From the NCBI GenBank assembly GCA_001780275.1, contig MFGB01000023.1, forward strand, positions 5,375-69,374: 64,000 bases of DNA. Direction: 5' to 3'. Below are positions 3,280-50,412 of the stretch, piece after piece. Both the position numbers and the translations under genes were made by a program. Position 1 is the first letter of the stretch, and every line of letters starts with the position of its first letter. The notes under the pieces were generated by a model, which worked only from the letters and a program-made list of their open reading frames with translations, had not been told where the DNA came from and did no database searches. The stretch is from Candidatus Falkowbacteria bacterium RIFOXYA2_FULL_47_19. Lineage in GTDB: Bacteria; Patescibacteriota; Patescibacteriia; Patescibacteriales; UBA12075.

Positions 3280-3286
3280 ATCTATC

Positions 3287-4147: not shown

Positions 4148-4195
4148 ATGGTCAACTTGGTAAATATTCAGCAGCGCTATATATGTTCTACATAA

Positions 4196-5365: not shown

Positions 5366-5367
5366 AA

Positions 5368-6885
5368 CTACAAGTTTTTTAAATTATTAAGTCCGGCCAC
5401 GATTTCCATTTCTAACGCCTCGATCTTCCCCAAAATCACTTTCGGATCTTCGTAAATCGCTTCTTCATAATCCGTCACTTTATAACGATTAATACTCAAA
5501 TCAAAATCCGCTTCTTCGATTTCTTTTTTTTCAACGTAGAAGAACTTGCTATTCCGTTTATTCTCCTCTTGGTCTTTTCGCTTTTTCCATTTCGCCACGA
5601 TATCCGGCAAATCGCCACCACCATTGATCTTGGTTCGCTTATCATCCAGCGAAAAGCCATCTGACTGCATGTCATAAAACCAAACCTTCTCCGTCTCCCC
5701 GCCTTTCACAAAAATCAAAATTGCGGTGCTTACTCCGGCGTAGGGCTTGAACACTCCGCTGGGCATTGAGATAACGCCTTGCAGTTCGCAATCATTGAGT
5801 AACATTTTGCGCGCCTGCTTATGCGCGTTACTGGATCCAAAAAGCACGCCGTCCGGCACAATCATACCGGCGCGGCCGCCGATTTTGAGTGATTTGATAA
5901 TCCGATTAATAAACAGGAGTTCGGTCTTGCTGGTATTGAGCGAAAGCGATTCGTTGATATCTCCTTTATCAATACTCCCCTTGAACGGCGGATTCGCCAT
6001 GATGCAATCGTAAAAATTATCCTCATCGTATTTTTTTGATAACGTGTCTTTCTGTTCAATATTAGGACTGCTGATGCCGTGCATCATCAAGTTCATGAGA
6101 CCAATCCGCACCATACTCTCATCCATATCATAGCCGTAAAAAGTTTTTTCCTTAAGATGAGTCCACTGTTTTTCACTTGTCAGTTTATCGCCCAAATGCC
6201 CGCGCGTCAAACCGTTCTCATCTGTCTTCTGATTTTCCTTGCTGGTATAGGCGGTTATAATATGCTGGTAGGCGCCAAGTAAAAAGCCCCCGGTACCGCA
6301 GGCTGGATCACAAATCGTGTCACCCAATTTAGGGTCAACTAGTTCGCAAATCAATTGAATAATATGACGTGGTGTGCGAAACTGGCCAAGCTTGCCGGCA
6401 CTCGTAATTTCTGAAAGTAAATATTCGTAGAGATCACCTTGCGTATCCTGAAAGCCCTGTCCTTCCGATTCCTGCTTGGAAATCTCTTCAAAAATTTCAT
6501 CTATAATGTTAACCGCTTCTACTAAGAGCGAGGGTTTGGAAATTATAAAAACCGCGTTGCCCATGTGCTTAGCGAAAGGACTTTCCTCCTTGCCGATCGT
6601 TTTGAGGAAAGGGAAAACTTTTATTTGAACGTGTGTAAGCATTTCGCCGCCCTCCATGTGCCGGAAATGACTCCAACGCAACTTTTCATTACCTTTAAAA
6701 AGCGATCGATAAGCCTCACCAGTAAACTCCGCGTCTTGTTTCTTTTTCGTATCCATCTCATCCAATCTTTTCATAAACAGCAAATAAGAAATCTGCTCAA
6801 TGGCAGTCAGTGGATTGGAAATGCCACCGCTCCAAAATTTATCCCAGAGCCGACCGATGGCTGATTTCAGTGTACTATTTAGCAT
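5368..6885 (-). CDS. hsdM: Type I restriction-modification methyltransferase subunit
   Basis: HsdM_N-like N-terminus ('LWDKFWSGGISNPLTAIEQISYLLFMKRL'), motif I 'DPACGTGGFL' and motif IV 'ANPPF'. It overlaps hsdR by 11 nt. Confidence 0.9.
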   Translation of the reverse strand: MLNSTLKSAIGRLWDKFWSGGISNPLTAIEQISYLLFMKRLDEMDTKKKQDAEFTGEAYRSLFKGNEKLRWSHFRHMEGGEMLTHVQIKVFPFLKTIGKEESPFAKHMGNAVFIISKPSLLVEAVNIIDEIFEEISKQESEGQGFQDTQGDLYEYLLSEITSAGKLGQFRTPRHIIQLICELVDPKLGDTICDPACGTGGFLLGAYQHIITAYTSKENQKTDENGLTRGHLGDKLTSEKQWTHLKEKTFYGYDMDESMVRIGLMNLMMHGISSPNIEQKDTLSKKYDEDNFYDCIMANPPFKGSIDKGDINESLSLNTSKTELLFINRIIKSLKIGGRAGMIVPDGVLFGSSNAHKQARKMLLNDCELQGVISMPSGVFKPYAGVSTAILIFVKGGETEKVWFYDMQSDGFSLDDKRTKINGGGDLPDIVAKWKKRKDQEENKRNSKFFYVEKKEIEEADFDLSINRYKVTDYEEAIYEDPKVILGKIEALEMEIVAGLNNLKNL

Positions 6886-9685
6886 AATTTAAAATTTTAT
6901 CCGTGAATTGAATTATTTCCTTTTGCATATTTATCGGGAAGACACCGAGGAAGCCGCGGGCATGGATCTTGGTGAACGGCTCGCTAACCAAATCTTTTTT
7001 GGCCAATTCGCCATTGTTTATAATAAAATCACGCAACACAATCAAAAACTGGATTTGCTTGGGAGCCAGTGTGTTGTGCTCGGCGATAAACTCTGCGAAG
7101 GCCTCGGATACTTTTTCGGAAAAAGTGACCAAACCGCCCAAACCCATGATGTATTTTATCAGATCCAAAAATTTCACTTGCCGGGCATCATAGGCTTTTT
7201 GCAAATTTTCCTCGGTCGGATAAGGCTCGTATTCAGCCAAGGTATCGGCCAACTCCTCAACTTCCTCCTGGCTTACCGCTTCACCCTGTTTTAGTTTTTG
7301 CAGCACTTCGTTTTCAGTTTCTAGCTTTTTGATTAACGACTCGACTTTTTCACGGTATTTTTGAATAGTAAGCCGTTCATGTTCCGGGCCGAACTTGATA
7401 TATTCTTTTTGACTCGTTATATCGCGCAGATCAAGCGAATCCTGATCAGGCTTAATCCCCTCATCCCGGTATTTCATCAAAGGGGCAATTTTTTGAATCA
7501 ATACTTCCAGCGCATTATCATCGGCTTTTTTTAAAAAATTGCCATGTAAAATTTCTTCGATTAGCTTTTTCTCCTTGGCAACAACGTTGACTGATAATGG
7601 CAAGTCCGAAACCATCTCAACAAGGGCTTCCCCTAAAACCTGTGCTCGCTTGTCTTGATTATCAAGTTTGGCAATAGAGTAATGCAGTACTTTCAATTCA
7701 AAGCTCATAGCTTTGAAATCTTCGCCCGTCCGCGTGCGCATCAAGGGCGCAATCTCTTTTTCTAAAAATATTTTTTTATCTTCATTTAGTCTTTGCCAAA
7801 AAGTCTCGTCCACTTTTTCCAGCTTGCTTTTGGCGTCCAGTATCACCACATTATTAGACGGCAACTTAGCAATATCTACTTTTAACTTCTGGGTTACGGA
7901 ATTGACCAACTCGGCATTGTTGTGCGAATCCACAATGTTCAATTTCAATAATTTTGCTTCAAAAATCCGAACCGGCAGCGGCTTAGTGGCTTTGTCAATT
8001 TTGCCGGTGGGATTCATTTGGAAATAGTCAAAATTCTCCCAACAATCAATGATAAGAAATTTATCCTTGGTCTTGCACCAGGGCTTAATTTTATTGACTT
8101 CAAGGAGACGAGTGCCGCGGCCGATCATCTGCCAAAATTTTGTATAGGAAAAAACTGGTTTTGCAAAAACCAAATTAACCAACTCACGGACATCGATGCC
8201 CGTATCAAGCATATCAACGCTAATTGCAATTCGCGGGAAGTCTTTATTAATAAATTGATCCAAGAGGCCACCCTTACCATAAACTCTGGCATCGTCAGAA
8301 ACAATCACCTTGGCGATATTGCCTTTGTGCTCCGGATAAAGGTCGTCAAAAACTTCTTGGAGTCGCCGGGCGTGTTTCATGGTCATGGCAAAGAAAATTG
8401 TTTTTCCCGGCAAAGTACCGCTTTCGTCTTTAATGCACTCCTCCATAAACTCCTGAACAATCAATGCGTTAGTACCACGGTTAGTCACTTTTTTTTCAAT
8501 TTCACTGCCTTCGTAATTAATTTCAGCCGGCTCCTTGCCATCAGCCAATAGTTTTTGCTGCTCACCAATTGAAATGGTATCTTTTCTGATGCCTTCTTTT
8601 TGAAATTTAGTTCTGACTTTTAAAACTTCGAAGTTGGAAAGATAGGGCGGTTTATTATTCACGGCTTCGTCAAATGAATAGGCATAAGTCGGAATACCGT
8701 CTGCGCAATCAAATAGCCCAAAAGTATTGTGTTCAACCACGTCCTTGGGCGTAGCTGTCAGCCCCAATTGAATCGTATCAAAATAATCAAAAATATTTCT
8801 ATAAACATTATAAATCGAGCGGTGACTTTCGTCCGCCACAACCATGTCAAAAAAATGCGGACTCAAAGGACAATCATTATTCTCAATGATATTGAGCATC
8901 GTCTGATAGGTAGCACAATATATTCTTCTATCGGTAACAATATCGTGCTCTCCGATTTTCGGCCAAACTGGGGCATTGGGTAAAAACTCCTTAAAAGCAT
9001 CAAGAGCCTGGTTTCTAAGAGCAATTCTGTCTACCAAAAATAAAACTTTTTGAACTCGATTAGTGCGCATTAAAACGTCTATCATGGACACGCATGTCCT
9101 GGTTTTGCCGGTACCTGTTGCCATGACCAGCAATGACTTCCTTTTCCCTTTATCCAGATTTTCAAATACCGATCGGATCGCTTCGATTTGATAAGGGCGA
9201 CCAGAAATATCCCGATTAATCAATTCTTGTGATAGCGGTTTTTCATTATTCCGTAAAAATAACATCCTTTCCAGGTCCTTTTTACTAGGAAAGCCGTAAA
9301 CTTTCCGCGGCGGATATTTTTCAGTTTCCCAAAAATAAATATCGTGTCCATTGGTATAAAAAACAAAGGGCATATCTTTGCCGGAATTTTTTTGAATATT
9401 TTCCGCATACTGGCGCGCCTGCTCCTGACCGATTCTAGCGTCTTTCGAAGTTTTCTTTGCCTCAACCACAGCTAGTGGATAACCATTGTCGCCAAGCAAG
9501 GCATAATCAGCGAACTGATGACCTTGATATTCGTTAAGCGGCTGTTCTTTTGTCATGCCCTCCGAACCCACCCAAATATCTAATTCCGTCGTTACCTGAG
9601 TTACATTACCAACATCCCAACCACCCTTAGATAGTCGCTTATCTATTATATTTCGCCTTGTTAAGGCTTCGTTTATTTTTGCCAT
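6875..9685 (-). CDS. hsdR: Type I restriction enzyme R subunit (SF2 helicase/nuclease)
   Basis: N-terminal nuclease region, Walker A 'MATGTGKT', DEAH-type 'VADESHRS', helicase C motifs and a long helical C-terminal extension as in EcoEI-type HsdR. Confidence 0.9.
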   Translation of the reverse strand: MAKINEALTRRNIIDKRLSKGGWDVGNVTQVTTELDIWVGSEGMTKEQPLNEYQGHQFADYALLGDNGYPLAVVEAKKTSKDARIGQEQARQYAENIQKNSGKDMPFVFYTNGHDIYFWETEKYPPRKVYGFPSKKDLERMLFLRNNEKPLSQELINRDISGRPYQIEAIRSVFENLDKGKRKSLLVMATGTGKTRTCVSMIDVLMRTNRVQKVLFLVDRIALRNQALDAFKEFLPNAPVWPKIGEHDIVTDRRIYCATYQTMLNIIENNDCPLSPHFFDMVVADESHRSIYNVYRNIFDYFDTIQLGLTATPKDVVEHNTFGLFDCADGIPTYAYSFDEAVNNKPPYLSNFEVLKVRTKFQKEGIRKDTISIGEQQKLLADGKEPAEINYEGSEIEKKVTNRGTNALIVQEFMEECIKDESGTLPGKTIFFAMTMKHARRLQEVFDDLYPEHKGNIAKVIVSDDARVYGKGGLLDQFINKDFPRIAISVDMLDTGIDVRELVNLVFAKPVFSYTKFWQMIGRGTRLLEVNKIKPWCKTKDKFLIIDCWENFDYFQMNPTGKIDKATKPLPVRIFEAKLLKLNIVDSHNNAELVNSVTQKLKVDIAKLPSNNVVILDAKSKLEKVDETFWQRLNEDKKIFLEKEIAPLMRTRTGEDFKAMSFELKVLHYSIAKLDNQDKRAQVLGEALVEMVSDLPLSVNVVAKEKKLIEEILHGNFLKKADDNALEVLIQKIAPLMKYRDEGIKPDQDSLDLRDITSQKEYIKFGPEHERLTIQKYREKVESLIKKLETENEVLQKLKQGEAVSQEEVEELADTLAEYEPYPTEENLQKAYDARQVKFLDLIKYIMGLGGLVTFSEKVSEAFAEFIAEHNTLAPKQIQFLIVLRDFIINNGELAKKDLVSEPFTKIHARGFLGVFPINMQKEIIQFTDKILNYAK

Positions 9686-9940
9686 ATTAAATCTATATTA
9701 ACTGTCTAAACCTTGATTTGCTTGATTAAAGGATTAGCTTGATCACGGGCTGCGCGGCGTCAATATGTCTTTTTGTATCTGCGTTCATAATTTTTTTAAT
9801 TTCTTTATAGAATTATTGCCAATAAGGGAACGCGTATAAATAATTGCAATTTATGTTTTTAATGTTATTGAATTCAATAATATCAAAATCTTCATCGCTT
9901 TATCAATTTTTCAAAGCTCCTCTAATACTAAATATTATCT

Positions 9941-9966
9941 ATGTTTTAATGACATCATTAAAACAT
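9941..9966. promoter_or_regulatory. perfect 12-bp inverted repeat (candidate operator) upstream of hsdR
   Basis: ATGTTTTAATGA-ca-TCATTAAAACAT, about 255 bp upstream of the hsdR start, inside a 590-bp AT-rich non-coding stretch. Confidence 0.3.
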
Positions 9967-10185
9967 CTGTGGATATGTCCAACTGATTTATTATAAAAAA
10001 TTAAACCCATGTTTAAATCTATATTAACCGTCATAACTAAACCCTCGACATCTGGCCCGAATTATCCATACTATAGTTTCGATATTTACTATATTTAAAT
10101 AATTTTTACAATTTAGCCTGAAATATTATATTAACCAATATTTAATAAAATAATAGTATATTCAAGGGGTATCTTAATATAAGCA

Positions 10186-10213
10186 TTGACAAATCACGCT
10201 AATGTGTTATATT
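10186..10213 (+). promoter_or_regulatory. sigma70-like promoter with extended -10
   Basis: TTGACA (10186-10191), a 16-nt spacer, then TGtTATATT (TG at 10205-10206, -10 at 10208-10213). It points at the hairpin pair downstream. Confidence 0.4.
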
Positions 10214-10220
10214 AAAGATA

Positions 10221-10283
10221 CAAATGGCCTTCGGGCTCCGAGACCCCATTTCTTCTTCGGAAGGGATGGGGATCGTCTTTTAT
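10221..10283 (+). ncRNA. candidate ~60-nt small RNA (two UUCG-capped hairpins + U-tract), convergent with the MazF-like gene
   Basis: Hairpin 1 is GGCC-UUCG-GGCU (10226-10237). Hairpin 2 is a 12-bp stem CCCCAUUUCUUC-UUCG-GAAGGGAUGGGG (10244-10271) whose two G.U pairs are valid only on the plus strand. It is followed by UCUUUUAU, a U-tract present only in plus sense. Confidence 0.35.
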
Positions 10284-10672
10284 AAGAGATCTTTTATTCT
10301 CTTTTTTGTTTCCTCAAATTCGTCCTCAGGCAAGTACCTCAACTTTCTGACCAATCTTTTGCTGCTTATTAGCCTTAGCTGTGATAACAAGATCGAATAA
10401 TCGAAATCGTCATAATTTACGACGTAATAAAATCTTCCCTCTTTCTTTTTACTGGACATCGGCACTCCCCAAAATACTTCCGGTCCGAATTTTCTAAGTA
10501 TTAAAACAGGCCTCTCGAATTTCGCGTTTTTACCATCCTGTTCAAATCCTATATTCGATCCTAAGCTGGCCCACCATATTTCCCGTTCCTTAAAATAGAC
10601 GATATCGTTTTCGTTTGATTCTATCCTGATCTTAAGTTTTGTCCACTCGATAATTCGTCTTAATTTTTCCAT
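10280..10672 (-). CDS. PemK/MazF-family endoribonuclease toxin, no adjacent antitoxin ORF
   Basis: 'REIWWASLGSNIGFEQDGKNAKFERPVLILR' and 'ILLSQLRLISSKRLVRKLRYL' align by eye with EndoA/MazF ('GDVYFADL..GSEQGGVRPVLVIQ', 'ILLEQIRTIDKQRL'). The upstream 280 bp contains no ORF longer than 30 aa on this strand. Confidence 0.8.
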   Translation of the reverse strand: MEKLRRIIEWTKLKIRIESNENDIVYFKEREIWWASLGSNIGFEQDGKNAKFERPVLILRKFGPEVFWGVPMSSKKKEGRFYYVVNYDDFDYSILLSQLRLISSKRLVRKLRYLPEDEFEETKKRIKDLL

Positions 10673-10958
10673 AAACTAATTTCATGATATAATATTTAAA
10701 TCATCAATTAGAAACATATATCATTGGTAATCCTGCCCGTGGATACGGGTCCGATATCCGCAAGTCTCGCCCAACAGCGGGATTTTTACATTTCGGCCAA
10801 TCTGCATTTTTACTATGATAATTATAGACTAGGCGGAAAATCCATATTTCCCCTAAACTATACCACCAAATCCCCACAAAATCAAGAAAAAGGACTAAAA
10901 ATAGCGCAGATATGAAATTTTCCTGGATTTTTTATAAAGAACAGATTAAATTACGTTT

Positions 10959-10987
10959 AAAAACCCGCGAAATGGTCGCGGGTTTTT
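10959..10987. terminator. bidirectional intrinsic terminator (copy 1 of a repeated module)
   Basis: AAACCCGCGA-aatgg-TCGCGGGTTT, with an A-run 5' and a T-run 3'. It lies just 3' of the 11016-13304 gene. Confidence 0.7.
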
Positions 10988-11015
10988 ATGAAAAAAATTA
11001 AAAATCTCTTCTGAA

Positions 11016-14682: not shown

Positions 14683-15378
14683 TTAATTGATCCAGTGCCC
14701 GGCCGGCAAAGCGTTGCAAGCGGCGGCGGCGTAGGGCTGGACCTCGGCGGTATAAGGGTCGCCGCCGTAATCGTAGTGCCAGGTAACGATCTCGTCTGCG
14801 GTTTCGGCGCCTATGCGGCAGCCACCGATCGTCGGGCGCGGGCAGGGCGAAATCTTAAAAGCGCCGCCGCAATTCAAGGCCGCCCTATTGCCGGACCAGT
14901 TCGCGCCGATATATTCAACGCAGGTACTGCCGTCGCCGATCCGGTCGCATGACCCGCGGGCCTTGTTTTTGAGATCCTCGCTTAAAGTTATCTCCTCGCC
15001 CGAGTCGGGGCTCGTGGGCTCATCCGGGTCGATCTCTTCGCCGGAATCGGGACCGTCCGGACTCTCATCAACATCGATCTCTTCGCCCGAGTCCGGCCCT
15101 TCGTTAACATCGATCTCTTCGCCCGAGTCCGGTCCTTCGTTAACATCGATCTCTTCGCCCGAGTCCGGTCCATCCGGCTCTTTATCAAAATCAATTTCTT
15201 CGCCGGAATCGGGACCGTCCGGACTCTCATCAACATCGATCTCTTCGCCCGAGTCCGGCCCTTCGTTAACATCGATCTCTTCGCCGGAATCGGGACCGTC
15301 CGGCTGGAATGACAAGGCGCAGCCGGAAAAAAAGACCAGGGCCACGAGCATTAATAAAGTTAAATAAGTTTTTTTCAT
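14683..15378 (-). CDS. lipoprotein with acidic tandem repeats and a Cys-rich C-terminal domain
   Basis: Lipobox 'VFFSGC', at least 8 copies of 'GPDSGEEID(V/F/P)(N/D)E', and a C-terminal domain with 8 Cys. Confidence 0.7.
   Translation of the reverse strand: MKKTYLTLLMLVALVFFSGCALSFQPDGPDSGEEIDVNEGPDSGEEIDVDESPDGPDSGEEIDFDKEPDGPDSGEEIDVNEGPDSGEEIDVNEGPDSGEEIDVDESPDGPDSGEEIDPDEPTSPDSGEEITLSEDLKNKARGSCDRIGDGSTCVEYIGANWSGNRAALNCGGAFKISPCPRPTIGGCRIGAETADEIVTWHYDYGGDPYTAEVQPYAAAACNALPAGHWIN
14995..15305. repeat. in-frame tandem repeat (36-bp and 54-bp units; 162-bp higher-order copy)
   Basis: Reiterated atcgatctcttcgcccgagtccgg(c/t)ccttcgttaac units. The block around 15050-15120 recurs at around 15212-15280. 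Confidence 0.85.
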
Positions 15379-21574: not shown

Positions 21575-22018
21575 TCAATTCCCGTCCGTCTCTATGCTCT
21601 TCTGCAAAGCCTCCAGCGCGTTCTGCAGGCTTTGTATGGAACCGACGCTTTCGCTCCGAAGGTCGTCCCGAAGCGCTTCGAAATTACCGTCTATTTCCCG
21701 CCAGCGCTCTTGCGCAGCCAGAGAGGCCTCGCCATAAGCCTCCTTTAAATTCTCCCTTACCTCCTCGGCTTCTTGCGCGATCTGGCTATAATCCTCTCCG
21801 GACATGATCCTGGTCTTAAGCGAAAGCAGGTGGCTTCTCGCGTCCAGGTCCGCTTTCTCCGTTTTTATTTCCTGCCGTATTTCATTTATCTCTTCCGCCG
21901 CTGCGTCATTATTCCGGTACCCGCTGAAACTCAGCCAGGAAAAACCCAAAGCGGACAGCGCGGCGATCAAAGCCAGGACGCTTAAGGCGTTTACGGTTGT
22001 GATTTTTCCTCGTTCCAT
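21575..22018 (-). CDS. membrane-anchored coiled-coil protein, hypothetical
   Basis: An N-terminal TM helix followed by a charged helical region. A hairpin with T/A tracts lies at about 21525-21550 downstream. Confidence 0.5.
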   Translation of the reverse strand: MERGKITTVNALSVLALIAALSALGFSWLSFSGYRNNDAAAEEINEIRQEIKTEKADLDARSHLLSLKTRIMSGEDYSQIAQEAEEVRENLKEAYGEASLAAQERWREIDGNFEALRDDLRSESVGSIQSLQNALEALQKSIETDGN

Positions 22019-22230
22019 AAATTCCGTTTTTTATTTTAAAAATTTTAATATTTAAGAATTTACCACGCGCAATTTAATGGTGGATTAAATTGGACCATTT
22101 TTTTCTTAAGTATTTTTAATAAAATTTTAATTTATTATCCATAAAATGATCATTAATCAATGAACATATGATAAAATACGGTTCTTTGTAAACACGCGCG
22201 TTCACCGTCAGGAAAAAAGGAGAGAGTTTA

Positions 22231-23850
22231 ATGAAAAAAACGTCTTCGGTGTTTTTATTTTTTTTAACTTTAGCGTTCCTGCTGATCGGATGCTCGGGCG
22301 GGGGCGGAGCGGGAGGCGAGAGCGGGGCGGATGATCCCGGGAATCATGATAACGGAGGAATACCTTTACCCTTGGCTCCGACCGCCGCGATCTGGGCTTC
22401 AAGCGAGGCTATCAATGAAGGAGAAAGCGTACTGATCAGCTGGGAAACGGCGAACGGAACCGCGGAACTCTCTCCGCCTGTAGTTTATGACGCGCCGGCC
22501 GCGGGCAGTATCGACGTGATCCCCGCGGCTACGACCACTTATACGGTAACATGCCGGACTCCGGACGGACGGACCGAATCGGCCGGCGTAACCGTAAAAG
22601 TCAATCCGGCCCCGGTAAGGTCCTGTAGGGCGCCGGAAATCCCTTATTTCGAGCTCCTGCCCGAACGGATATTGACGCCCGGAAGCGGTCTCGTTACTCT
22701 TGCGTTTAAGACGGCGGAAAACGCGGACAGGATCGAGATCGACCTTGAAAACGGGGAAACGATCCCTCTGGTGAGGGTTTGCGAAGCGAATTGGAGCGTT
22801 TCCGTGGATTCGGAAAAACTGCTCTTAAATTACGTACCGGAAGAACCGCGGGTGGTCGTCGGCTACCTTGACGCGTATTCGGGGCCAGACCGTATCAGCC
22901 GGCGCAATCTTATCCTCCCGGTACGGACCGCCGCTATGCCGGATACGGATATGCGGATCATCGATCATAGCCGGCAAAGAAGCGGCCGCGTGCTGAATAT
23001 CCGCTATGACGGGGAAATATTTCTCGGCGGACAAAGCAGTACGTACGACCCGGTCTGGAGGGCGATAGAAAATACCGTTAAGAACGAACTAGGCGAGCGG
23101 GATATTTACGTTTTGATCGGCCAGGTCGAGGCGTTCGCGAATCGGACCGGAGGAGGAAAGGTCATTTCTTTTCCCAACCTCTTTTTCTTCGATCTCGCGA
23201 GTCGGGGAACGATACATGAGATCGGCCATTGCCTGGGATTGGCTTATTCCAGCCACCCTTCGCTGCGTGATCCGGCCGCCGGCGGCCATTGGGCTCCGGG
23301 AAACGCGGCTCTGGGTATTATGGGCTGGTCGCTTCCCGGGGGCGCGGGAGCGACATTCCCTTATCGCCTGGAAGCCGGGGATGATCCCGACACGACCGGA
23401 CTATGGGTAACGCCGATCGCCATGGAGTTTAACGATCTTGAACTCTATAAAATGGGCGCGCTTCCGAAGGAGCGGGTCGCGCCGATAACGCAATTTACCG
23501 ATCCGGCCGCGGCCATCTCCTGGTTTAATAATCCTTATCCGCTTCCGTCCTGCGGCGAAAGCTGCCAGCGGCTCGATGTTCCGTCCCGGCCGGTTTCGAT
23601 AGATGAAATAATCGCGGCGGACGGCGAAACGCCGCCGGCGGCCAAAACCGGGCTTACCCTGGGAACGGTCGTCCTGACCAGGGGAAGGCTTCTTAGTCCC
23701 GATGAAATGTCCTTTATCGAATATATGGCCAAACGCGGCGAAAGCGAAGATCCGTCGATCGGCGTCCACGAAGGGTTGTGGAGTTACGCGGGGAAACCGT
23801 TCCGGGCGGCCACCCGGGGACTTTTTACCATAAGCGCTTCAATCGATTAA
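22231..23850 (+). CDS. lipoprotein with zincin-type HExxH motif (putative metalloprotease)
   Basis: Lipobox 'LLIGCSGGGG', 'GTIHEIGHCLGL' (HExxH) and a GGAGAG RBS upstream. Confidence 0.6.
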   Translation: MKKTSSVFLFFLTLAFLLIGCSGGGGAGGESGADDPGNHDNGGIPLPLAPTAAIWASSEAINEGESVLISWETANGTAELSPPVVYDAPAAGSIDVIPAATTTYTVTCRTPDGRTESAGVTVKVNPAPVRSCRAPEIPYFELLPERILTPGSGLVTLAFKTAENADRIEIDLENGETIPLVRVCEANWSVSVDSEKLLLNYVPEEPRVVVGYLDAYSGPDRISRRNLILPVRTAAMPDTDMRIIDHSRQRSGRVLNIRYDGEIFLGGQSSTYDPVWRAIENTVKNELGERDIYVLIGQVEAFANRTGGGKVISFPNLFFFDLASRGTIHEIGHCLGLAYSSHPSLRDPAAGGHWAPGNAALGIMGWSLPGGAGATFPYRLEAGDDPDTTGLWVTPIAMEFNDLELYKMGALPKERVAPITQFTDPAAAISWFNNPYPLPSCGESCQRLDVPSRPVSIDEIIAADGETPPAAKTGLTLGTVVLTRGRLLSPDEMSFIEYMAKRGESEDPSIGVHEGLWSYAGKPFRAATRGLFTISASID

Positions 23851-23900
23851 GACCGTTCCTTTAAGGTTTAATTAAAATAGTACTTTATTTAAAAAAATAC

Positions 23901-23933
23901 AACCGGACGAAATTGTCCGGTTTTTTTATTTTT
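23901..23933 (+). terminator. intrinsic terminator (copy 1 of the AACCGGAC/GTCCGGTT module)
   Basis: AACCGGAC-gaaatt-GTCCGGTT followed by T7ATTTTT. It lies 50 nt after the 22231-23850 stop. Confidence 0.75.
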
Positions 23934-24537
23934 CCCGATATTTATCCATGGGTAAAAACACGGCTAACGCCGGAGTTTCTCTTTAATATTACCGCCGCGA
24001 TAATTAAAGTTTAATTAAGTTTTAATTTTATCTGTTTTATTATCCGTTCTAATCGGACTTTAACCTGCCAAATCTAAAATAGATTATGAATTAATGAACA
24101 TATAATTAATTCATCGATTTTTTGTAATTTGAAAAATAAATAAAAACTGATCTATGCGGACACAAGGGTCAGCGGAAAAACGGTTACGGGCTATTTATTT
24201 TTATGGAGTACGCGTTCCTCTGGAATGCGGGGAGGGGGTGGGAGCGGATTCGATGGTTACGGTATAATTAAGTACCCTTGTTCAATGAAGCGATTGCGGC
24301 TTTCCCGGCAAATGGCGTCCGAGGAAATTATAAGATCTATGCGTTTAAGCGCGTGAGACAATCGAACACGATCGATCTCCGCGCTTACGGCCGAAAATTC
24401 CGGGCCGGATTGCCGCTCGATCGAGCTTATTCCGGCTCCGGCAAAATCGTCCAGCGCGGAAAGGATTTCCCGCGCGCGGTCAAATTTGTCTTCCGGGTAT
24501 TTACGGAAAAAACAAGCGTTTCCTGGAGTCGCGCCAA

Positions 24538-24933
24538 GACCGCTCCGGAATCGCGCGCTCAACATCCTAAATATTCATCTACCGTCCGGGAATAAAGATC
24601 ATCGGCCGTACAAGAAAGATACGACCCGAGCCGTTTAACGGTAAGCCGGCCGATACGCGTACGCGCGTATTTAAAATAGACGGCGAAGAAGCGGCCCGCG
24701 CCCGAACTTCACTTTGCGGGCAATATCCCGCGGGTAAAGAGCGCGCGCGTCCGGTCCGAAAGCGGCCAATAAAACAGTGAGGGAAAAACCGGCGGACGGG
24801 ATTATTGCGCTTCGGAGGGTTTTGAGTCCGCGAACGGAAGCGAGCAGAGTGCTCATCGGCCTTCCCGACCGGCTTTAAACAGAACCGGCTTATTAGGGTC
24901 AGGCATTTGTAGTAAGCTCCTCCGGAAGCGGAC
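24538..24933 (+). ncRNA. candidate RNase P RNA-like structured RNA (tentative)
   Basis: ACAGAACCGGCTTAT (24879-24893) nearly equals the bacterial CR-V sequence ACAGAACCCGGCTTA. Upstream, in the E. coli order, lie GTCCGGG (24584-24590, about 295 nt before CR-V as in M1 RNA), a GCCCGC...GCGGGC hairpin (about 24694-24722), GGTAAAGAGCGCGC (24733-24746) and GGCCAATAAA (24764-24773). The termini pair (GACCGCUCCGGA 24538-24549 with UCCGGAAGCGGAC 24921-24933). The weaknesses are that the canonical GGAAAGUCC is not intact and P2/P3 are unresolved. Confidence 0.35.
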
Positions 24934-25429
24934 AATCGGCGATACCGAGCCTTTTTATGGACATCGTCGCGGCATTCTTATCGCCCGCAAGACGAAGGTA
25001 TTTCTGGGTATAACGTACCCCGGCGACGATCGCTATGGGCGTTTCCAGATCAAAGCCGCGCGGGTACTTTATCTGCGCCCCTGGTTCGCGGCCGCTCCCC
25101 GGATTAACGGAACCTATCCATTTCCGTCTGCTATCCGTCCTGGTGGGTTACGCCTGGACAAAATAAACGGCGAGCGGCGAAACTTACTGCCGCGAAGACG
25201 GTTTGCCGGGATAAATCCTCTTCAGGGGAGCTTCCGAAAGGCAGCGAACGGCCTTTACCGGCACACCGAAGACGCTGATCGACTCAAGAGCGGACATAAG
25301 AGACTGGTATAAAACTGGAGAAAAAAAACAGTTGATCCGTAAGCCGGTTTTGACTTGAGCGCATACGAAAAAACTTCAAAGCGGATGCGCGGGATTTATA
25401 AGCTAGCTTTGATCCATTAAATTCGTAGA

Positions 25430-26215
25430 TACGAATACGGTTAAACACGAAAAATAAAAAAGGCCGAAGCCTGGGCCGACCAAGGTTAGCGGTAAAAAAG
25501 AAAGAAAAGGAAAAAATCGGAAGTCCGCGGGCATCAAAAAATTACGCGGAAAAACCGCGCGATCGATCAGAAAACCCCGCGGCCGAATACGGCCAAACAC
25601 GGAAGACCAAAAAGACCGAAAATGGGCCGATCATGGCCAGCGGCGAAAACGAAAGAAAAGAAAAAAAACGGAAGTCCGCGGGCATCAAAAAATTACGCGG
25701 AAAAACCGCGCGATCGATCAGAAAACCCCGCGGCCGAATACGGCCAAACACGGAAGATAAAAAGAGCCGAAGCCTGGACCGACCAAGGTCAGCGGTAAAA
25801 AAGAAAGAAAAGAAAAAAAGAAAGAAAAGAAAAAAAGAAAGAAAAGAAAAAAAGATAGAAAAGAAAAAAAGAAAGAAAAGAAAAAAAGAAAGAAAAGAAA
25901 AAAAATAAAAAAATAAAAAATCGGAAGTCCGCGGGCATCAAAAAATTACGCGAAAAAACCACGCGATCGATCAGAAAACTCCGCGGCCGGATACGGCAAA
26001 CACGGAAGATGAAAAGAGCCGAAGCCTGGGCCGACCAAGGTCAGCGGTAAAAAAGAAAGAAAAGAAAAAAAAGAAAGAAAAAAATAAAAAATCGGAAGTC
26101 CGCGGGCATCAAAAAATTACGCGGAAAAACCGCGAGCGATCAGAAAGCCCCGCGGCCGGATACGGCCAAACACGAAAAATAAAAAAGGCCGAAGCCTGGG
26201 CTGATCAGAGTCAGT
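25430..26215. repeat. tandem array: 4 full units plus 1 partial unit of a hairpin-dense GC-rich core with A/G-rich linkers
   Basis: Units start at 25518, 25669, 25922 and 26093 with CGGAAGTCCGCGGGCATCAAAAAATTACGCGGAAAAACCGCGCGATCGATCAGAAAACCCCGCGGCCGAATACGGCCAAACACGG. A partial unit at 25430-25517 matches the 3' half. Periods are 151, 253 and 171 nt because of linker length. Confidence 0.9.
25803..25905. repeat. 17-nt all-purine microsatellite (GAAAGAAAAGAAAAAAA) x6
   Basis: Six head-to-tail copies, one with an A-to-T change at 25856, lie inside the linker of unit 2. The other linkers hold only 1-2 copies. Confidence 0.9.
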
Positions 26216-26540
26216 GAAAAACGCGGATCGAAGTAAATCACGAAATTACGGTAAACCCATAAAAAAGATGTTAACTAGGGGGGGGCGCGCCGCTAAACAG
26301 GCACGGAAACGCAATATAACCGTTATCGGTATAAATACGAGGATAGTAAAATTCTATTCTTCATAAGGTAGTTATCATTTACCGTTACGATCAAGATTAT
26401 ATTTCCCAGGAGGGCGAGCGGTTGCAAGCCGTCAGGCAACAAAAACCAGCAGGCTAACGCTGTCGGAACGATACGGGACGGCCGGATCTTCCGGCTTGAT
26501 CATAAAATAGTTCTTTATCCAATCAAACATAAAAAAATAT

Positions 26541-26570
26541 AACCGGACAAAAAGTCCGGTTTTTTATTTT
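26541..26570. terminator. bidirectional terminator (copy 2 of the AACCGGAC/GTCCGGTT module)
   Basis: AACCGGAC-aaaaa-GTCCGGTT with an A-run before and T5ATTTT after. The flanks match 23891-23936. It lies 3' of the M23 gene and at the end of the ORF-poor block. Confidence 0.7.
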
Positions 26571-26606
26571 CCGCCGTCAATAAAAACCCGACGGATCATT
26601 CGGATT

Positions 26607-27599
26607 TTATATGTCTTGGCCGATTTTATAATCGAAAAAAAACGAATCGGGCAGGTCGTCGACCTTTTTTTTCCAATCATCGCCGTAAAGCGCGGCGGCG
26701 GTTTCGGCTGAACGGATCCAGCGCAACTCGCCGCCGCGGGCGACCGCGTAGACCCGGGGATCGGTTTGCACCTTGACCATCCTCGTTCCCGGCCGGTAAG
26801 TGGCATTTCCGCCCAAAGGGATAGAGGCCATCTGGTCGACGCTTATTTCCGTCACATCGCCAAAACCGCCGTACCAGGAAAAATAGATCTTTTCGTTCGG
26901 AAAAACGTAACGCCGTCCGTCGGCTCCGCAATAATAAACGGCCGGCAGTCCGGATAATTTGACGAGCGAGCCGGAAACGCAGGCCGAAGCCGCTTTCGCG
27001 GAGAGTCCTTTGTCGGCGTTTATATCCGGAGAAAGAAGCCCGGCTTCCTTAATATCATAATCTATGACCGGATTAAGGGCGGCCGCGAGGCTCGGATAAG
27101 GATCGATCGGTGTTTTATCCGGCTGGCGGATCTCGAAGTGAAGATGCGGCCCGGCCGCTTCGGCGTTGCCGCTGTCCCCCATCCAGCCGATCAGATCGCC
27201 CCGGGATACTTCGGTCCCCTCCTTTATCCCGGGAGCGTAAGCGTGCCCGGTACCGCCCCGGCCGTCATCCGTACCTGGAGTGTCGTTATTGACGTGAAGA
27301 TAGTGGTAGGTAAAACCGTCCGCGTCCTTAAGCGTAATAGCGTAGCCCCAGGAAGATTCCGGATCGACCAGATCCGCGACCCGCCCGTCTACGGCGGCAT
27401 ATAGCGGCATCATCCGCTCGCCCATGATATCCTCGCCTTCGTGCGCGTGTCCCGAGCGGGGGTCGCCGAAGCTCTCCGTCAGTACGGCCCGGCGTTCGGT
27501 CGGAAAAAAGATCGGCCGGATTTCGGACGCCCGAACGGGAAAGATTATAATAAAATTAAAAATTGATAATAGAACAATGAACACTCCGGTCTTTTTCAT
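26607..27599 (-). CDS. secreted M23 (LytM-type) metallopeptidase
   Basis: Signal peptide, 'HAHEGEDI' (HxxxD), 'GDSGNAEAAGPHLHFEI' (HxH) and an additional C-terminal domain. Confidence 0.85.
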   Translation of the reverse strand: MKKTGVFIVLLSIFNFIIIFPVRASEIRPIFFPTERRAVLTESFGDPRSGHAHEGEDIMGERMMPLYAAVDGRVADLVDPESSWGYAITLKDADGFTYHYLHVNNDTPGTDDGRGGTGHAYAPGIKEGTEVSRGDLIGWMGDSGNAEAAGPHLHFEIRQPDKTPIDPYPSLAAALNPVIDYDIKEAGLLSPDINADKGLSAKAASACVSGSLVKLSGLPAVYYCGADGRRYVFPNEKIYFSWYGGFGDVTEISVDQMASIPLGGNATYRPGTRMVKVQTDPRVYAVARGGELRWIRSAETAAALYGDDWKKKVDDLPDSFFFDYKIGQDI

Positions 27600-28802: not shown

Positions 28803-28931
28803 TCCGGTTCACGCGAAATCATCCCTGACGGCTTCGTCCGGCCTTTTATCTTCGCGCCGGTTTCGGTTTCCTTATCGCATTTTAAAGATCATGTTATATA
28901 CTTTAAAGAGGCTAATTATTTAACGAAAAAT

Positions 28932-29810
28932 ATGGAAAATCCAAAGATCGGCTTTATCGGCCTCGGCACGATGGGGAGGGGCATGGCCGATAACCTTAAA
29001 AAAACCTATCCGTTATGCGTGTATAACCGCACCCGCTCCCGGGCCGAAGCGCTGGCGGCGGCGGAGATAGCGGGCAGTCCCAGGGAGGCGGCCGAGCGCT
29101 CGGAGATCATTTTTACCTGCGTTTCAGACGACCGCGCCCTGGAAGAGATCCTGTCCGGATCAGGCGGACTTTTCGAGGCGGATCTGACCGGCAAGATCCT
29201 GGTCGACTCCGGTACGACCTCCCTCGGTCTCACGGAAAAGATCGCGCGGGAAGCAAAGCGAAAGGACTTTGAATTTTTAGACGCACCGGTCACGGGAAGC
29301 AAATCAGGAGCCGAGGAGGGAAAGCTCATGTTCATGGTCGGCGGAAAAAAAGAGGTTTTCGACCGGATCGTCCCGGTCCTTAAAACCATGGGCGAACGCT
29401 TCGTTTACTGCGGGCGTACCCCGAACGGCCAAAGCGCCAAGCACGCCCTGAATCTCACGTTGTCGCTCGTACTCGAAAGCTATCTTGAGGGCCTCGCCTT
29501 CGGCCTCAAAGCCGGTGTGCCCCTTAAGGCGATGGAGGAGATCTTCGGCAACTCGGGCGCGAAAAACGGCATCGCGTCCTTCAAGATGCCTTATATAAAA
29601 AAACGCGACTTCGCGCCGCACTTTATGCTCAGGCTCATGAATAAGGATCTGAAGCTGGCGGCCGAAGACCGCGCGCGGTTCGGCGTTTACGCTCCTTTAG
29701 CCGATGAAATAATCAAAATATTCGATCAGGCCCTCTCCCGCGGCAACGAAGACGTTTCCACGATCGCCAAAACCCTGGAAAAAGCGAACGGCGTCTCGTT
29801 CTCGGAGTAA
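28932..29810 (+). CDS. NAD(P)-dependent beta-hydroxyacid dehydrogenase family oxidoreductase
   Basis: Rossmann motif 'IGFIGLGTMGRGMA', 'DAPVTGS' and a C-terminal 6PGDH-like helical domain. Confidence 0.85.
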   Translation: MENPKIGFIGLGTMGRGMADNLKKTYPLCVYNRTRSRAEALAAAEIAGSPREAAERSEIIFTCVSDDRALEEILSGSGGLFEADLTGKILVDSGTTSLGLTEKIAREAKRKDFEFLDAPVTGSKSGAEEGKLMFMVGGKKEVFDRIVPVLKTMGERFVYCGRTPNGQSAKHALNLTLSLVLESYLEGLAFGLKAGVPLKAMEEIFGNSGAKNGIASFKMPYIKKRDFAPHFMLRLMNKDLKLAAEDRARFGVYAPLADEIIKIFDQALSRGNEDVSTIAKTLEKANGVSFSE

Positions 29811-44775: not shown

Positions 44776-45044
44776 GAAATCCTCCTTTTTTAAAAAACAC
44801 TAAAAATTAATATAATTCACGATTACAGCTATTTTGTTTTAGTTCGGGCGAAGGCCCGCGCACAAGCGTTGCGCGTTCTGCGGTTTAAAAATTCCGCCTC
44901 GTCCTCTTCGTTCCCCCGGGTCGCGTTCAGACAGAATAAAACCCCTGAACACATTGAACGCTCAGGGGCGCCAGGAATCTTTGATAAACCAGTCAATTGC
45001 GGCTTATTTCAATGCAGGCTTGAACTTAATTTATTATCATAGCA

Positions 45045-45461
45045 TTACTGCCCCAAACAGCTTCTTGTCTTAAATATCTCCATTGCACTGGGCGTGGCCC
45101 CACCGACAATCTCATCCGCTCTTTTTTGCCCCAGCTTTTCAATGAAACACTCTCCCATTCCAGGCGTGATGCTTGAAGGCAGCTGACTAACATCCACGCC
45201 ATAGTTTTCCAAGGTTTTTTCCTGCTCTTCGTTCAACAAGGGGTGTTTATCTGCGGATGATTCGTTGTTTTCTATAACAGTGCCACCGCCTGAATTACTG
45301 TCAAGCGGAGAATAATTCTCAATCGTACCGCTTAAATAACTATTAATCATGCTGCTGATAAACTTTGTCCTTAAGTCGAAAGGATTAAAAACAAATACAA
45401 CAATCATAGAAATAACCGAAACCAGGATAATGATCAATAAAATTTGTATTGCTTTTTTCAT
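45045..45461 (-). CDS. membrane-anchored hypothetical protein
   Basis: N-terminal TM helix. No recognisable domain. Confidence 0.5.
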   Translation of the reverse strand: MKKAIQILLIIILVSVISMIVVFVFNPFDLRTKFISSMINSYLSGTIENYSPLDSNSGGGTVIENNESSADKHPLLNEEQEKTLENYGVDVSQLPSSITPGMGECFIEKLGQKRADEIVGGATPSAMEIFKTRSCLGQ

Positions 45462-45472
45462 GTATCTGAAAT

Positions 45473-46195
45473 TTATTTCGACAGCAATTTATTCAACCAG
45501 CCGAACAGACCGAACCCCCTGCCTTCTTCCTTGATTTCTCCCGCTAACTCCGTCTTGGCCTGCTCCATGATTTCAATCTGTTCATCCAAAATTTCCGCAT
45601 CAGCTTCATTCGTTATTTGAGAGGCCAATTCTTTTAGTTCTTCCAGTTTTTCCGCGTGAGCTGCCAATTTGTTCTCTGCCATATAGATATATTTGTTCGG
45701 ACCAAAGAAAAACCTCCATACCGCATTTCCCCTGTTATTCTTTGCATGTTCCAATGTTGTTTCTATTTCCTTTTGGTTCTGATCTTGATTCTGGGCGATG
45801 GTCCTGATTTGCTGCCCGACGCCATGGTTACGTTCCGCCACTTGAAGCATCTGTTCAACAGCATTGGCCACCCTGCTTCGTCTTTGAGCAGCCCTATCAT
45901 TGAGCTGGCCTCCCTTGCCATTCCCGTTAATTGATTTTTTACCAGCCTGGGCGTTCTGTTGCAATTCAACTTGATTCTGCTGTTCTTCTCCCTGGTTTTG
46001 TAAACTGGTGGCGTTCTGGGCTTCCAGTCCTTGACCAATTCCCTGTCCAGCTTCTTCGAGCTCGGGATTTTCAATCCCAGTACCAGCTTCTTGGACTCCT
46101 TTCTGTCCGCTTTGATTTCCCTGAGCAAAAGATAAAAATGGGACAAGCATTAAAGACAAAACCATAATGCTTGTTATAGTTTTAAAGTGTTTCAT
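45473..46195 (-). CDS. secreted Gln/Glu-rich coiled-coil protein, hypothetical
   Basis: Signal peptide 'LMLVPFLSFAQG', a low-complexity Q/N/G region and a helical C-terminal half. Confidence 0.5.
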   Translation of the reverse strand: MKHFKTITSIMVLSLMLVPFLSFAQGNQSGQKGVQEAGTGIENPELEEAGQGIGQGLEAQNATSLQNQGEEQQNQVELQQNAQAGKKSINGNGKGGQLNDRAAQRRSRVANAVEQMLQVAERNHGVGQQIRTIAQNQDQNQKEIETTLEHAKNNRGNAVWRFFFGPNKYIYMAENKLAAHAEKLEELKELASQITNEADAEILDEQIEIMEQAKTELAGEIKEEGRGFGLFGWLNKLLSK

Positions 46196-46209
46196 AGATT
46201 TAGTTTAAA

Positions 46210-46785
46210 ATGATATTATGCCTTTATTATAACATTTTTAGCGCCTTAATTAAAGTTATGCCATATAACTACATCCGAAAAAATGCTATCATAAAAAATA
46301 AGAGAAAACCAATGGACAAAACCAGTATCAATCAAAAACTCAAAACCGTTTTCTGGATAACATTTATTATCTATTTTTTGGTTTTAATAAAACTGATATT
46401 TTTCAAGCTCCCCCTGCCAGCTGTTTTAATGATCATAACCGGCGATGATATAAACTACGCCCATTCAGTAAACATAATCCCATTCAAAACCATCATTTTT
46501 TATTTACATGGCAATCCATTACCGCACATCGCCTTTAAAAATCTTCTGGGGAATATTTTGTTTTTTATCCCGTTTGGTTTTTTGCTTCCTGTGCTTTTGT
46601 CCAAAATCAACTCTGCCAAAAACATCTTAATCGCCTCCGCAACTTTCTCGCTTCTACTGGAATTATTACAAATATTTCTTCATCTCGGCTCTTTTGATAT
46701 TGACGATATATTTTTAAACACCGTTGGAGCTTTGATCGGGTATTTGGTTGCCTTGAAAATCTTTACTCCAAAGAAACAGACTTGA
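46210..46785 (+). CDS. VanZ-like family membrane protein
   Basis: 'VNIIPFKTI', 'GNILFFIPFGFLLP', 'LLLELLQIF' and 'DIDDIFLNTVGALIGY'. The likely start is the internal Met (MDKTSINQ). Confidence 0.75.
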   Translation: MILCLYYNIFSALIKVMPYNYIRKNAIIKNKRKPMDKTSINQKLKTVFWITFIIYFLVLIKLIFFKLPLPAVLMIITGDDINYAHSVNIIPFKTIIFYLHGNPLPHIAFKNLLGNILFFIPFGFLLPVLLSKINSAKNILIASATFSLLLELLQIFLHLGSFDIDDIFLNTVGALIGYLVALKIFTPKKQT

Positions 46786-49152: not shown

Positions 49153-49167
49153 AAATTTTTATTTTTT

Positions 49168-50340: not shown

Positions 50341-50412
50341 AAATAATTTTAATTAATTTCTTGTATATTCTTAATTATAGTCTTTTCAATTCAATTCCGC
50401 AACCTTTCAATC

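Follow-up and report, generated by a model that had tools for sequence, protein, structure and literature searches.

Borg elements carry A-enriched, T-depleted tandem repeats with flanking partial repeats, which have been ascribed to polymerase slippage and for which a role as regulatory RNA has only been suggested (Schoelmerich et al. 2023, PMC9879509). The array analyzed here lies in a window of 64,000 nt (the whole stretch of DNA that was analyzed) from a Candidatus Falkowbacteria genome, and it resembles the Borg repeats in its head-to-tail arrangement, its A-rich and T-poor composition on one strand, the partial repeat at its flank, its non-coding units that are not divisible by three and its variation in copy number within populations. 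However, Borg repeats are perfect or near-perfect while the units of the array are 80-92% alike, and the array combines long units with a nested 17-nt repeat at a single CPR (candidate phyla radiation) locus, inside a pseudogene. The surroundings are those of a decayed tandem paralogue, with colinear homology to the neighbouring gene, a lost start, stops, frameshifts and deletions, a doubled terminator and absence from a sister genome. In contrast to such paralogues, the 3' end is here amplified from about 130 nt to about 1.2 kb, and the extreme purine bias of the array is unusual for a bacterial pseudogene.

Some RNA systems look similar as well. ToxI, CptI and TenpI also consist of tandem non-coding hairpin repeats, but the units of the array are 3-4 times longer, the linkers are variable, there is no toxin gene and no similarity in sequence or to an Rfam family. 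With LhrC1-4, PrrF1/2, CsrB/RsmZ and CrcZ the array shares repeated hairpin modules and GGA or A-rich motifs that could in principle bind proteins of the CsrA or Hfq type. Unlike these RNAs, its units do not have their own promoter and terminator on one strand, its GGA motifs (3-4 per unit) lie mostly outside the predicted loops, and neither a partner protein nor conservation was found. With the query sequences used, the ~90 kb examined, which is part of the genome, showed no CsrA or Hfq. Because the array lies in the tail of a dead gene copy, has no counterpart in the closest relative and differs among near-identical strains, we take it to be, most likely, a rapidly evolving side product of DNA slippage rather than a structured RNA of a new class.

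Layout and composition of the array

The array occupies positions 25432-26225 of the window on the + strand and consists of four full units of ~137 nt each and one unit truncated at its 5' end. It was detected in the sequence itself, by Tandem Repeats Finder (period 151, score 609, span 25432-25819) and by repeat search alike. A profile of the unit gave the same count as a preliminary description of this DNA, with the four full copies at E values of 1e-41 to 1e-43, the truncated copy at 6e-14 and no further copy over the whole 64 kb. From left to right these are u0, truncated and of the outer subtype (25432-25496), linker 1 (25497-25516), u1 (25517-25645, profile match 25513-25648), linker 2 (25646-25667), u2 (25668-25796, profile match 25664-25800), linker 3 (25797-25920), u3, the most degenerate unit (25921-26048, profile match 25917-26052), linker 4 (26049-26091) and u4, again of the outer subtype (26092-26225, profile match 26088-26222). 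The linkers are polypurine stretches of 20-124 nt; the first two were read from the sequence, and the last two were found by Tandem Repeats Finder. Linker 3 is made of 7.3 copies of a 17-nt repeat, (AAAAAAGAAAGAAAAGA), with 94% matches and a score of 213. The view that the linkers are expandable is supported. An invariant core, GGAAGTCCGCGGGC, begins at 25519, 25670, 25923 and 26094, that is, at spacings of 151, 253 and 171 nt.

The base content of the + strand is 48% A, 24% G, 19% C and 8% T. The preliminary description had spoken of GC-rich units; the region as a whole is not GC-rich, the unit cores having 55% G+C and 9% T and the linkers 84% A. This enrichment in A and depletion in T, together with the head-to-tail order and the flanking partial copy, are the marks of a minisatellite. 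Slippage alone leaves the extreme asymmetry between A and T unexplained.

The identity between units is 62-92% over the full period, so the repeats are neither perfect nor near-perfect, and the 5' 88 nt of the units are almost invariant, an observation that speaks against a minisatellite. In the unit alignment, the two outer copies share one subtype (..CACGAAAAATAAAAAAGGCCG..) and the three inner copies another (..CACGGAAGA..), as had been noticed before; this pattern fits homogenisation or expansion in the middle. The locus is not a CRISPR array, since it has long units, with low-complexity polypurine in the place of "spacers". Coding potential was also rightly denied: among the periods of 151, 253, 171 and 17 nt, 151, 253 and 17 are not divisible by 3, no frame runs across the array, and the + strand open reading frames over it are explained by the scarcity of T.

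The hairpins that had been listed as conserved are present to different degrees. All four CCGCG/CGCGG segments exist in u1, u2 and u4, and two of them are mutated in u3 (CGCGA, CCACG). The GGCCG hairpin occurs in all units in the form GGCCG-RAUA-CGGCC, weakened in u3, while the GGC-CGAA-GCC hairpin is absent from u1 and the GACC-AA-GGUC hairpin is found in u2 and u3 only.

A decayed tandem gene copy around the array

The array is located in a 2757-nt gap without genes between two convergent genes. The upstream one (22231-23850, + strand) is an intact open reading frame for a protein of 539 aa with a lipoprotein-like signal and a HEIGH motif; this protein matched no Pfam family, and only 9 homologues of it were found. 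On the other side lies an M23 peptidase gene (26607-27599, - strand; Pfam PF01551, E 5.7e-16), which served as the synteny anchor. Over its left 1.3 kb the gap consists of a degenerate copy of the 539-aa gene (nhmmer E=1e-14), hereafter called the pseudogene of this parent. Its main body (24628-25259, + strand) is a copy of parent positions 22921-23718 with ~62% identity, large deletions, stops and frameshifts, and it scored 40.4 bits (E 1.3e-14) with the parent and 27.4 bits (E 1e-10) with the orthologue from L011, the closest syntenic relative, against a best control of 14.8 bits. The region upstream of the parent (22051-22230, + strand) matches 23982-24263 on the same strand (blastn 64%, E 1.5e-8; nhmmer 18.3 bits, E 6e-8), for which the support is moderate because the control window came close. 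This copy retains a TATAAT-like box and has lost the ATG and the ribosome-binding site; the best conserved block of the pseudogene is a promoter-like one (24075-24127).

The terminator is doubled too. Copy 1, a two-way hairpin (AACCGGAC..GTCCGGTT) with T and A runs, lies at 23873-23930 according to repeat search and terminator prediction. Copy 2 lies, together with a copy of the parent's post-stop region, at 26480-26570 and directly borders the M23 gene at its 3' end (nhmmer E values of 5e-5 for the parent and 6.5e-6 for L011; blastn 76%). The two copies flank both ends of an extra segment of 2572 nt and occur nowhere else in the window. The L011 orthologue yields the same three matches in the gap as the parent (upstream region, body and terminator region). 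Thus the unit of upstream region, 539-aa gene and terminator has been tandemly doubled, and its second copy has decayed beyond translation: 23931-26570 shows colinear homology, loss of coding and absence from the syntenic relative. The longest stop-free stretch in the gap, of 179 aa, is out of register and the open reading frames there have no protein family or homologue, and tblastn of the parent protein against the gap gave a best E value of 0.13.

The array takes the place of the final ~130 nt of coding sequence in the dead copy. The parent alignment stops at 23718, and the unit aligns colinearly from exactly that point to parent 23718-23799, with a score equalled by only 20 of 2954 background windows (p 0.007); this alignment is weak (p about 0.01, for a region picked after inspection), with many indels and ~60-70% identity. 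Both in the parent and in L011, the unit profile hits the same pair of anchors (E 0.024). All 8 mismatches between unit and parent are changes to A in the unit, and five of the eight are G>A. The preliminary description had held that descent from a decayed repeat-protein gene would speak against its view; the array does lie in a decayed gene copy and probably derives from it, although the parent is not a repeat-protein gene.

The stretch between pseudogene body and array (25260-25431, + strand) and that between array and terminator copy 2 (26226-26479, + strand) match neither the unit profile nor the parent, which, like the weak and indel-rich homology of unit and parent, sits uneasily with a minisatellite. 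One promoter-like site is found in the latter stretch, at 26378-26351 on the - strand. Degenerate extra units seemed visible by eye in the flanks (25184-25431 and 26216-26502), but the unit profile gave no support for them, and a 19-nt match of 24162-24180 to the 3' end of the unit is at about chance level. CPR genomes are compact, so that 2.6 kb of kept junk is unexpected under a minisatellite.

Comparison with relatives

In L011, whose M23 protein is 91% identical and whose orthologue of the parent is 86% identical in amino acids and 88% in nucleotides, only 114 nt and a single terminator separate the same two genes, and the array is absent; the closest syntenic genome therefore has one copy and one terminator. 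The third-codon-position identity to L011 is 81%, compared with ~62% between pseudogene and parent. The pseudogene is thus much older than the split from L011, which counts against a minisatellite, and the region has either persisted for long or been acquired by transfer.

Where 2-6 kb of flanking sequence shows 0-1 SNP, assemblies still differ from one another, but in the array only: L006 is without u3, L004 has a variant unit, and four other contigs break inside the array. The comparison of copy number that the preliminary description had called for rests on short-read assemblies, and in these the unit number does differ; such variation in copy number and units among near-identical genomes is typical of a minisatellite. 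Two further homologues (P0123, 48% identical, and the M23 homologue P0004, 67% identical) lie in other gene neighbourhoods without an array. With the unit profile no copy was found in related loci, and a match in L013 is a chance hairpin. The core pattern TCCGCGGGC..ACGCGRAAAAACCRCG had 0 matches in the viral set, as had a scan for the motif of the GGCCG hairpin (P4), and in the genome and metagenome contig sets it had one chance match, the same in both, in an intergenic region of a high-GC Rhodanobacteraceae; these two large contig scans, each with one strict pattern and in sets that do not hold the source contig itself, are a weak negative. The entire 2572-nt segment had no blastn match among phages and plasmids. 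In these searches no conservation was found outside this population. Together with the position in a decayed gene copy, this largely answers to the findings that the preliminary description had named as refuting it.

As to RNA structure, Rfam gave no match at the gathering score in the window and none in the array even at E<=10, and searches for tRNA and tmRNA found none. Single units fold at +0.2 to -2.75 sd relative to dinucleotide shuffles, with similar values on both strands. Covariation among the 5 distinct units amounts to one double change and five G-U cells, values that 80 of 500 and 104 of 500 shuffles equal, and variable columns are equally frequent in predicted stems (9/44) and outside (24/94). 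The idea of a structured-RNA family, for which such a covariation check had been recommended, is not supported by these five units. Seven of the 10 changes in predicted stems keep the pairing on the + strand, among them the double compensatory one and the five G-U cells, which counts against a minisatellite.

A young functional non-coding RNA is an unlikely account. In this view the duplicated promoter would produce an RNA from the + strand that carries, in its 3' part, a series of ~110-nt modules with several helices each (P1 closing, P2 CCGCGGG/CCCGCGG, P3 a CGCG hairpin, P4 the GGCCG hairpin and P5 a hairpin) separated by unstructured A-rich linkers, and this RNA would serve an RNA-binding protein as multivalent scaffold or sponge, through A-rich/ARN-like linkers or GGA, or would be processed into unit-length RNAs. 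RNAalifold indeed gives one 5-helix fold for all five distinct units, with 107 of 109 pair cells paired on the + strand compared with 102 on the - strand; P5 shows GC, AU and GU pairs plus a CG>UA double change, and the indels of P3 are all in its loop. The + strand is also free of internal terminators and has a strong terminator after the array, whereas on the - strand every unit holds two terminator-like hairpins; the GGA motifs and the good preservation of the promoter-like block point the same way. Against this stand the covariation within shuffles, the stems as variable as the loops, the weak single-unit folds and the loss of two CCGCG segments in u3, and also the absence from L011, the polymorphic copy number, the lack of an Rfam family and of CsrA or Hfq within the DNA examined, and the lack of a sigma-70-like promoter among the sites scored on the + strand. 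The whole-array fold (z -8.2 on the + strand vs -3.9 on the - strand) speaks for such an RNA, but its z is inflated because the copies pair with each other. It is rather doubtful, too, that an RNA gene has been caught at birth, with the amplified 3' end of the decaying duplicate forming a + strand multi-module RNA with A-rich linkers whose helices are already selected; it may be transcribed from the duplicated promoter and work, for instance, as a scaffold or sponge that binds protein multivalently. A - strand antisense regulator of the parent, derived from the pseudogene, is a less likely variant. A - strand function is in general improbable, whether leftward transcription started at the promoter-like site at 26378-26351 or ran on from the M23 gene, and whether the array were a terminator stack insulating the convergent genes or gave antisense RNAs pairing with the parent mRNA at its 3' end. 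On this strand each unit reads CGCGG-UUUUU-CCGCG followed by UAAUUUUUU, and has a GGC-UUCG-GCC hairpin with a run of U behind it; 18 terminator-like sites are counted vs 7.7 +/- 2.6 in shuffles; the G>A changes would retain pairing with the parent mRNA through G-U, and the changes to A would be C>T and G>T on the - strand, as expected of an exposed non-template strand. But a strong terminator already cuts the M23 gene off from the array, five stem cells turn into A-C mismatches, the identity to the parent is low and broken by indels, the linkers hold no unit-level promoters, and L011 copes with one terminator.

An element acting at the DNA level, either an array of protein-binding sites (centromere- or iteron-like) or a mobile or integrative relic inserted at the terminator, appears very improbable. 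The units do contain the palindromes CCGCGG, CGATCGATCG and GGCC..GGCC, the 17-nt polypurine repeat has the size of an iteron and could adopt a triplex, and direct repeats of about 60-70 nt with 76% identity stand on either side of the extra 2572 nt. However, tandem gene duplication accounts for the flanking repeats, and insertion at the terminator was rejected in its favour because the gap DNA is homologous to the parent gene; no gene for an integrase, transposase, Rep or Par protein and no homologue-bearing open reading frame is present, searches of phages, plasmids and viral contigs gave no match, and the cumulative GC skew has no turning point here. The type III toxin-antitoxin layout, in which an antitoxin array stands beside a decayed toxin, and a DGR template repeat, an A-rich copy of its target's 3' end, are effectively refuted by the unit length, the lack of a toxin or reverse transcriptase gene and the indel-rich parent alignment. 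They had drawn on the tandem RNA-like repeats beside - strand frame-1 fragments at 24260-25147, which could be taken as a broken gene downstream of the array, and on the fact that every mismatch to the 3' end of the parent falls at a unit adenine. But these fragments match nothing in Pfam, NCBIfam or a search of 5.8 billion proteins, their DNA is homologous to the parent gene on the + strand (24628-25259), and the units measure 137-151 nt instead of about 34-45 nt. Moreover, no ToxN-like match was found in the available DNA with the query used, in keeping with the earlier remark that no toxin gene is adjacent, no reverse transcriptase is among the called genes within +/-10 kb, and the unit and parent are about 65% identical with many indels.

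Probable origin and significance

We give a probability of about 60% to the array being a lineage-specific, A-enriched minisatellite that arose by slippage and unequal crossing-over in pseudogene DNA. A piece of ~80-100 nt from the 3' end (equal to parent 23718-23800) would first have been partly duplicated within itself, and would then have been amplified head-to-tail through replication slippage and unequal crossing-over, with the purine run GAAAGCGAAGA as the probable seed of the (AAAAAAGAAAGAAAAGA)n linkers. Ongoing unequal exchange and gene conversion would homogenise the inner copies and shift the unit number in the population, and the copies at the edges would retain the older subtype. 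The hairpins would mostly be palindromic CCGCGG, GGCC and CGATCG words, in part a legacy of the coding sequence. Should the duplicated promoter still be active, transcription of the + strand would yield a ~2.4-kb non-coding RNA that ends at the terminator at 26541-26561 and has the array as its tail, and for this RNA no function need be assumed.

If the non-coding RNA reading were true, this would be a rare bacterial structured RNA born from a pseudogene and would bear on the origins of non-coding RNAs. As a minisatellite, the locus illustrates clearly that ordinary genome decay can give rise to a striking "hairpin-dense RNA array". It documents a 2.6-kb non-coding relic with a hypervariable minisatellite in Candidatus Falkowbacteria, a group with usually compact genomes, and this minisatellite could serve as a strain marker.

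Architecture and setting of the array

The array lies within a 2757-nt gene-free gap flanked by two convergent genes, one encoding a 539-aa protein of no known family (22231–23850, + strand; here referred to as the parent) and the other an M23 peptidase (26607–27599, − strand). The names carried by M23 homologues assign the organism to Candidatus Falkowbacteria, within the Patescibacteria or candidate phyla radiation (CPR). A near-identical segment of about 60–70 nt is present at both ends of the gap (23873–23930 and 26503–26570), each carrying a two-way terminator hairpin, AACCGGAC..GTCCGGTT, with no third occurrence within the window. Most genes of the window are on the − strand, and the cumulative GC skew drops steadily across most of it, with a slight rise at about 22–29 kb. 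The G+C content swings between 26–46% in 1–11000 and 45000–64000 and 42–61% in 11000–45000, and the AT-rich right end also holds an 87-nt direct repeat (1.9 copies, 97% identity, 63587–63747).

The repeats are visible on reading 24800–26900, and Tandem Repeats Finder detected an array of period 151 (score 609) in which a 17-nt repeat, AAAAAAGAAAGAAAAGA, is nested in 7.3 copies at 25797–25920. The invariant core word GGAAGTCCGCGGGC begins at 25519, 25670, 25923 and 26094, giving periods of 151, 253 and 171 nt, and a profile built from the unit recovered four full copies (u1–u4) and one 5'-truncated copy (u0, 25432–25496), with no further copies in the rest of the 64 kb. The feature noticed in the preliminary description is therefore real and accurately described, including one sequence subtype common to the two outer copies and another common to the three inner ones, as the unit alignment shows. 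Some details need correction. As a whole the region is not rich in G+C, its composition being A 48%, G 24%, C 19% and T 8%; the unit cores have 55% G+C and 9% T, and the linkers are 84% A. Four CCGCG/CGCGG words per unit were reported, but u3 has lost two of its four, and only one of the three small hairpins is present in every unit. A repeat-protein reading was excluded, since periods such as 151, 253 and 17 nt cannot be divided by three and the array is not crossed by any reading frame. Elsewhere, a 36-nt tandem repeat (5.5 copies, 72% matches, 15070–15285) within an ORF on the − strand (14683–15378) is probably an amino-acid repeat, its period being divisible by three.

Neither the core pattern nor a second unit motif had any viral match, and blastn found nothing among phages and plasmids. 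In genome and metagenome collections the sole match to the core pattern fell in a Rhodanobacteraceae intergenic region and is a chance one; the source contig was not returned there either, so this is weak evidence of absence.

A decayed duplicate of the 539-aa gene

The closest relative found, GCA_043801965.1 (a Falkowbacteria genome, here the sister genome), has an M23 protein 91% identical and an orthologue of the 539-aa protein 86% identical in protein and 88% in nucleotide sequence. Its whole gene order is kept, but just 114 nt, holding one terminator, separate the convergent genes, and the window therefore has 2572 extra bases, 23931–26502. Another presence/absence difference within the same neighbourhood is a 450-aa gene of no known family, located at 7101–8453 of the sister sequence between the NAD_binding_2 gene and maf and absent from the window. 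The 539-aa family is rare (nine proteins found), and a 48%-identical member lies in another neighbourhood with neither gap nor array.

We then compared the parent gene region (22000–23935) with the gap by blastn and nhmmer. The matches are colinear: 22059–22341 with 23989–24263 (18.3 bits, E 6e-8), 22921–23718 with 24628–25259 (40.4 bits, E 1.3e-14) and 23851–23932 with 26480–26570 (E 5e-5), and the sister orthologue as query gave the same three. Among the controls, namely the reversed gap and 22 other windows on both strands, the best reached 14.8 bits in an AT-rich upstream region, so the body match is solid and the upstream match only moderately supported. A 14.8-bit nhmmer match joins the upstream region and start of the NAD_binding_2 gene (28868–29149) to those of the 539-aa gene, reflecting either promoter-type sequence common to both or a bias of composition.

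Neither the start codon nor the ribosome-binding site survives in the gap copy, which also carries large deletions; it has no usable frame, and no protein-level similarity to anything was found. On this evidence the gap is a decayed tandem duplicate of the upstream region, 539-aa gene and terminator, with a pseudogene and its upstream region at 23931–25259. Copy and parent share about 62% identity, whereas parent and sister orthologue share 81% even at third codon positions. For this reason the duplication would have preceded the divergence of these genomes and been lost in the sister, plausibly via recombination between the terminator repeats, or the copy would have been acquired from a more distant relative. 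In the copied upstream region, a TATAAT-like box lies between the arms of an inverted repeat, GAATTAAT..ATTAATTC (24069–24131); this block is the best-conserved part among parent, sister and pseudogene and may be an operator or promoter.

Colinearity breaks off at 23718 in the parent, opposite 25259 in the gap, and is picked up again at 23851, opposite 26480. The last ~130 nt of the parent coding sequence are thus represented by 1.2 kb of the copy, mostly array; 25260–25431 and 26226–26479 match nothing. Read cyclically, the unit is colinear with parent 23718–23799 through the anchors CGAATAT..ATGGCCA..GCGGCGAAAGCGAA, TCCG.CG..GGC.TC and TTACGCGGGGAAACCG, and, so aligned, the polypurine linker grows from the parent's GAAAGCGAAGA. 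Background windows scored as high in 20 of 2954 cases (p 0.007), or in 5 of 496 under stricter scoring, and the unit profile matched the same two anchors in the parent and in the sister genome (E 0.024, in a restricted search space). Two unit parts align to overlapping parent parts, which suggests an internal duplication before higher-order amplification. All eight mismatches between the unit at 25617–25708 and parent 23718–23799 are changes to A in the unit (five G>A, two C>A, one T>A), equivalent to C>T and G>T on the − strand. Derivation of the unit from the parent 3' end is suggestive, not proven, as many indels are needed and the boundaries were chosen after the anchors had been seen. The results largely agree with the outcome that the preliminary description had set against its RNA reading, namely units that are fragments of a decayed gene (in that description a repeat-protein gene, which the parent is not) and no conservation outside the contig.

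Predicted folding of the units

Rfam gave no match in the array, even at E<=10. The whole array folds with z of −8.2 on the + strand and −3.9 on the − strand, values inflated by inter-copy pairing of palindromic CCGCGG words. Single units (z +0.2 to −2.0) and 109-nt cores (−0.5 to −2.75) fold much alike on both strands. From the five distinct units across all assemblies, RNAalifold predicted a consistent five-helix fold, in which helix P2 has two one-sided changes to G-U, helix P5 has three pair types at one position and a CG>UA double change, and three changes break terminal pairs. Covariation did not exceed controls, column shuffles reaching the observed values in 80 and 104 of 500 trials, and variable columns were equally common in stems (9/44) and elsewhere (24/94). 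Paired cells amounted to 107 of 109 on the + strand versus 102 on the − strand. As few and closely related sequences were compared, a shared fold is a candidate only, and if present it would be on the + strand. The proposed new structured-RNA array is not supported.

Variation and origin of the array

The M23 protein was found on 16 contigs. The gap is identical to that of the window in three assemblies and is 171 nt shorter in GCA_036846865.1, which lacks u3; one assembly stops at a variant unit, and four contigs are broken within the array. Outside the array, sequences of the same population differ from the window by 0–1 SNP across 2–6 kb, which makes the array the hypervariable stretch of this locus, bearing in mind that a repeat was assembled here from short reads.

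That CPR genomes are compact, that the 5' 88 nt hardly vary among units, that some changes preserve pairing and that the A/T asymmetry is extreme and unexplained would all fit a young + strand ncRNA; the + strand has no internal terminator-like sites and a strong terminator after the array (26541–26561). We consider such an RNA unlikely, though the most credible of the alternatives. The − strand, with two terminator-like hairpins per unit, might instead form a terminator stack or antisense RNA, which seems improbable, and a DNA-level or mobile-element role is more doubtful still. A type III antitoxin or DGR template is the least credible of all.

The best-supported account is a lineage-specific minisatellite within what remains of the 3' end of a dead gene duplicate, to which we give a probability of about 0.6. 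The repeats of Borg elements are likewise A-enriched, T-depleted and tandem, with flanking partial repeats, but they are perfect or near-perfect (PMC9879509), unlike those of the array. The minisatellite would have arisen in the remnant by replication slippage and unequal crossing-over, and nested expansion of purine runs would have produced the linkers. Continuing exchange would then homogenise the inner copies and shift the copy number in the population.
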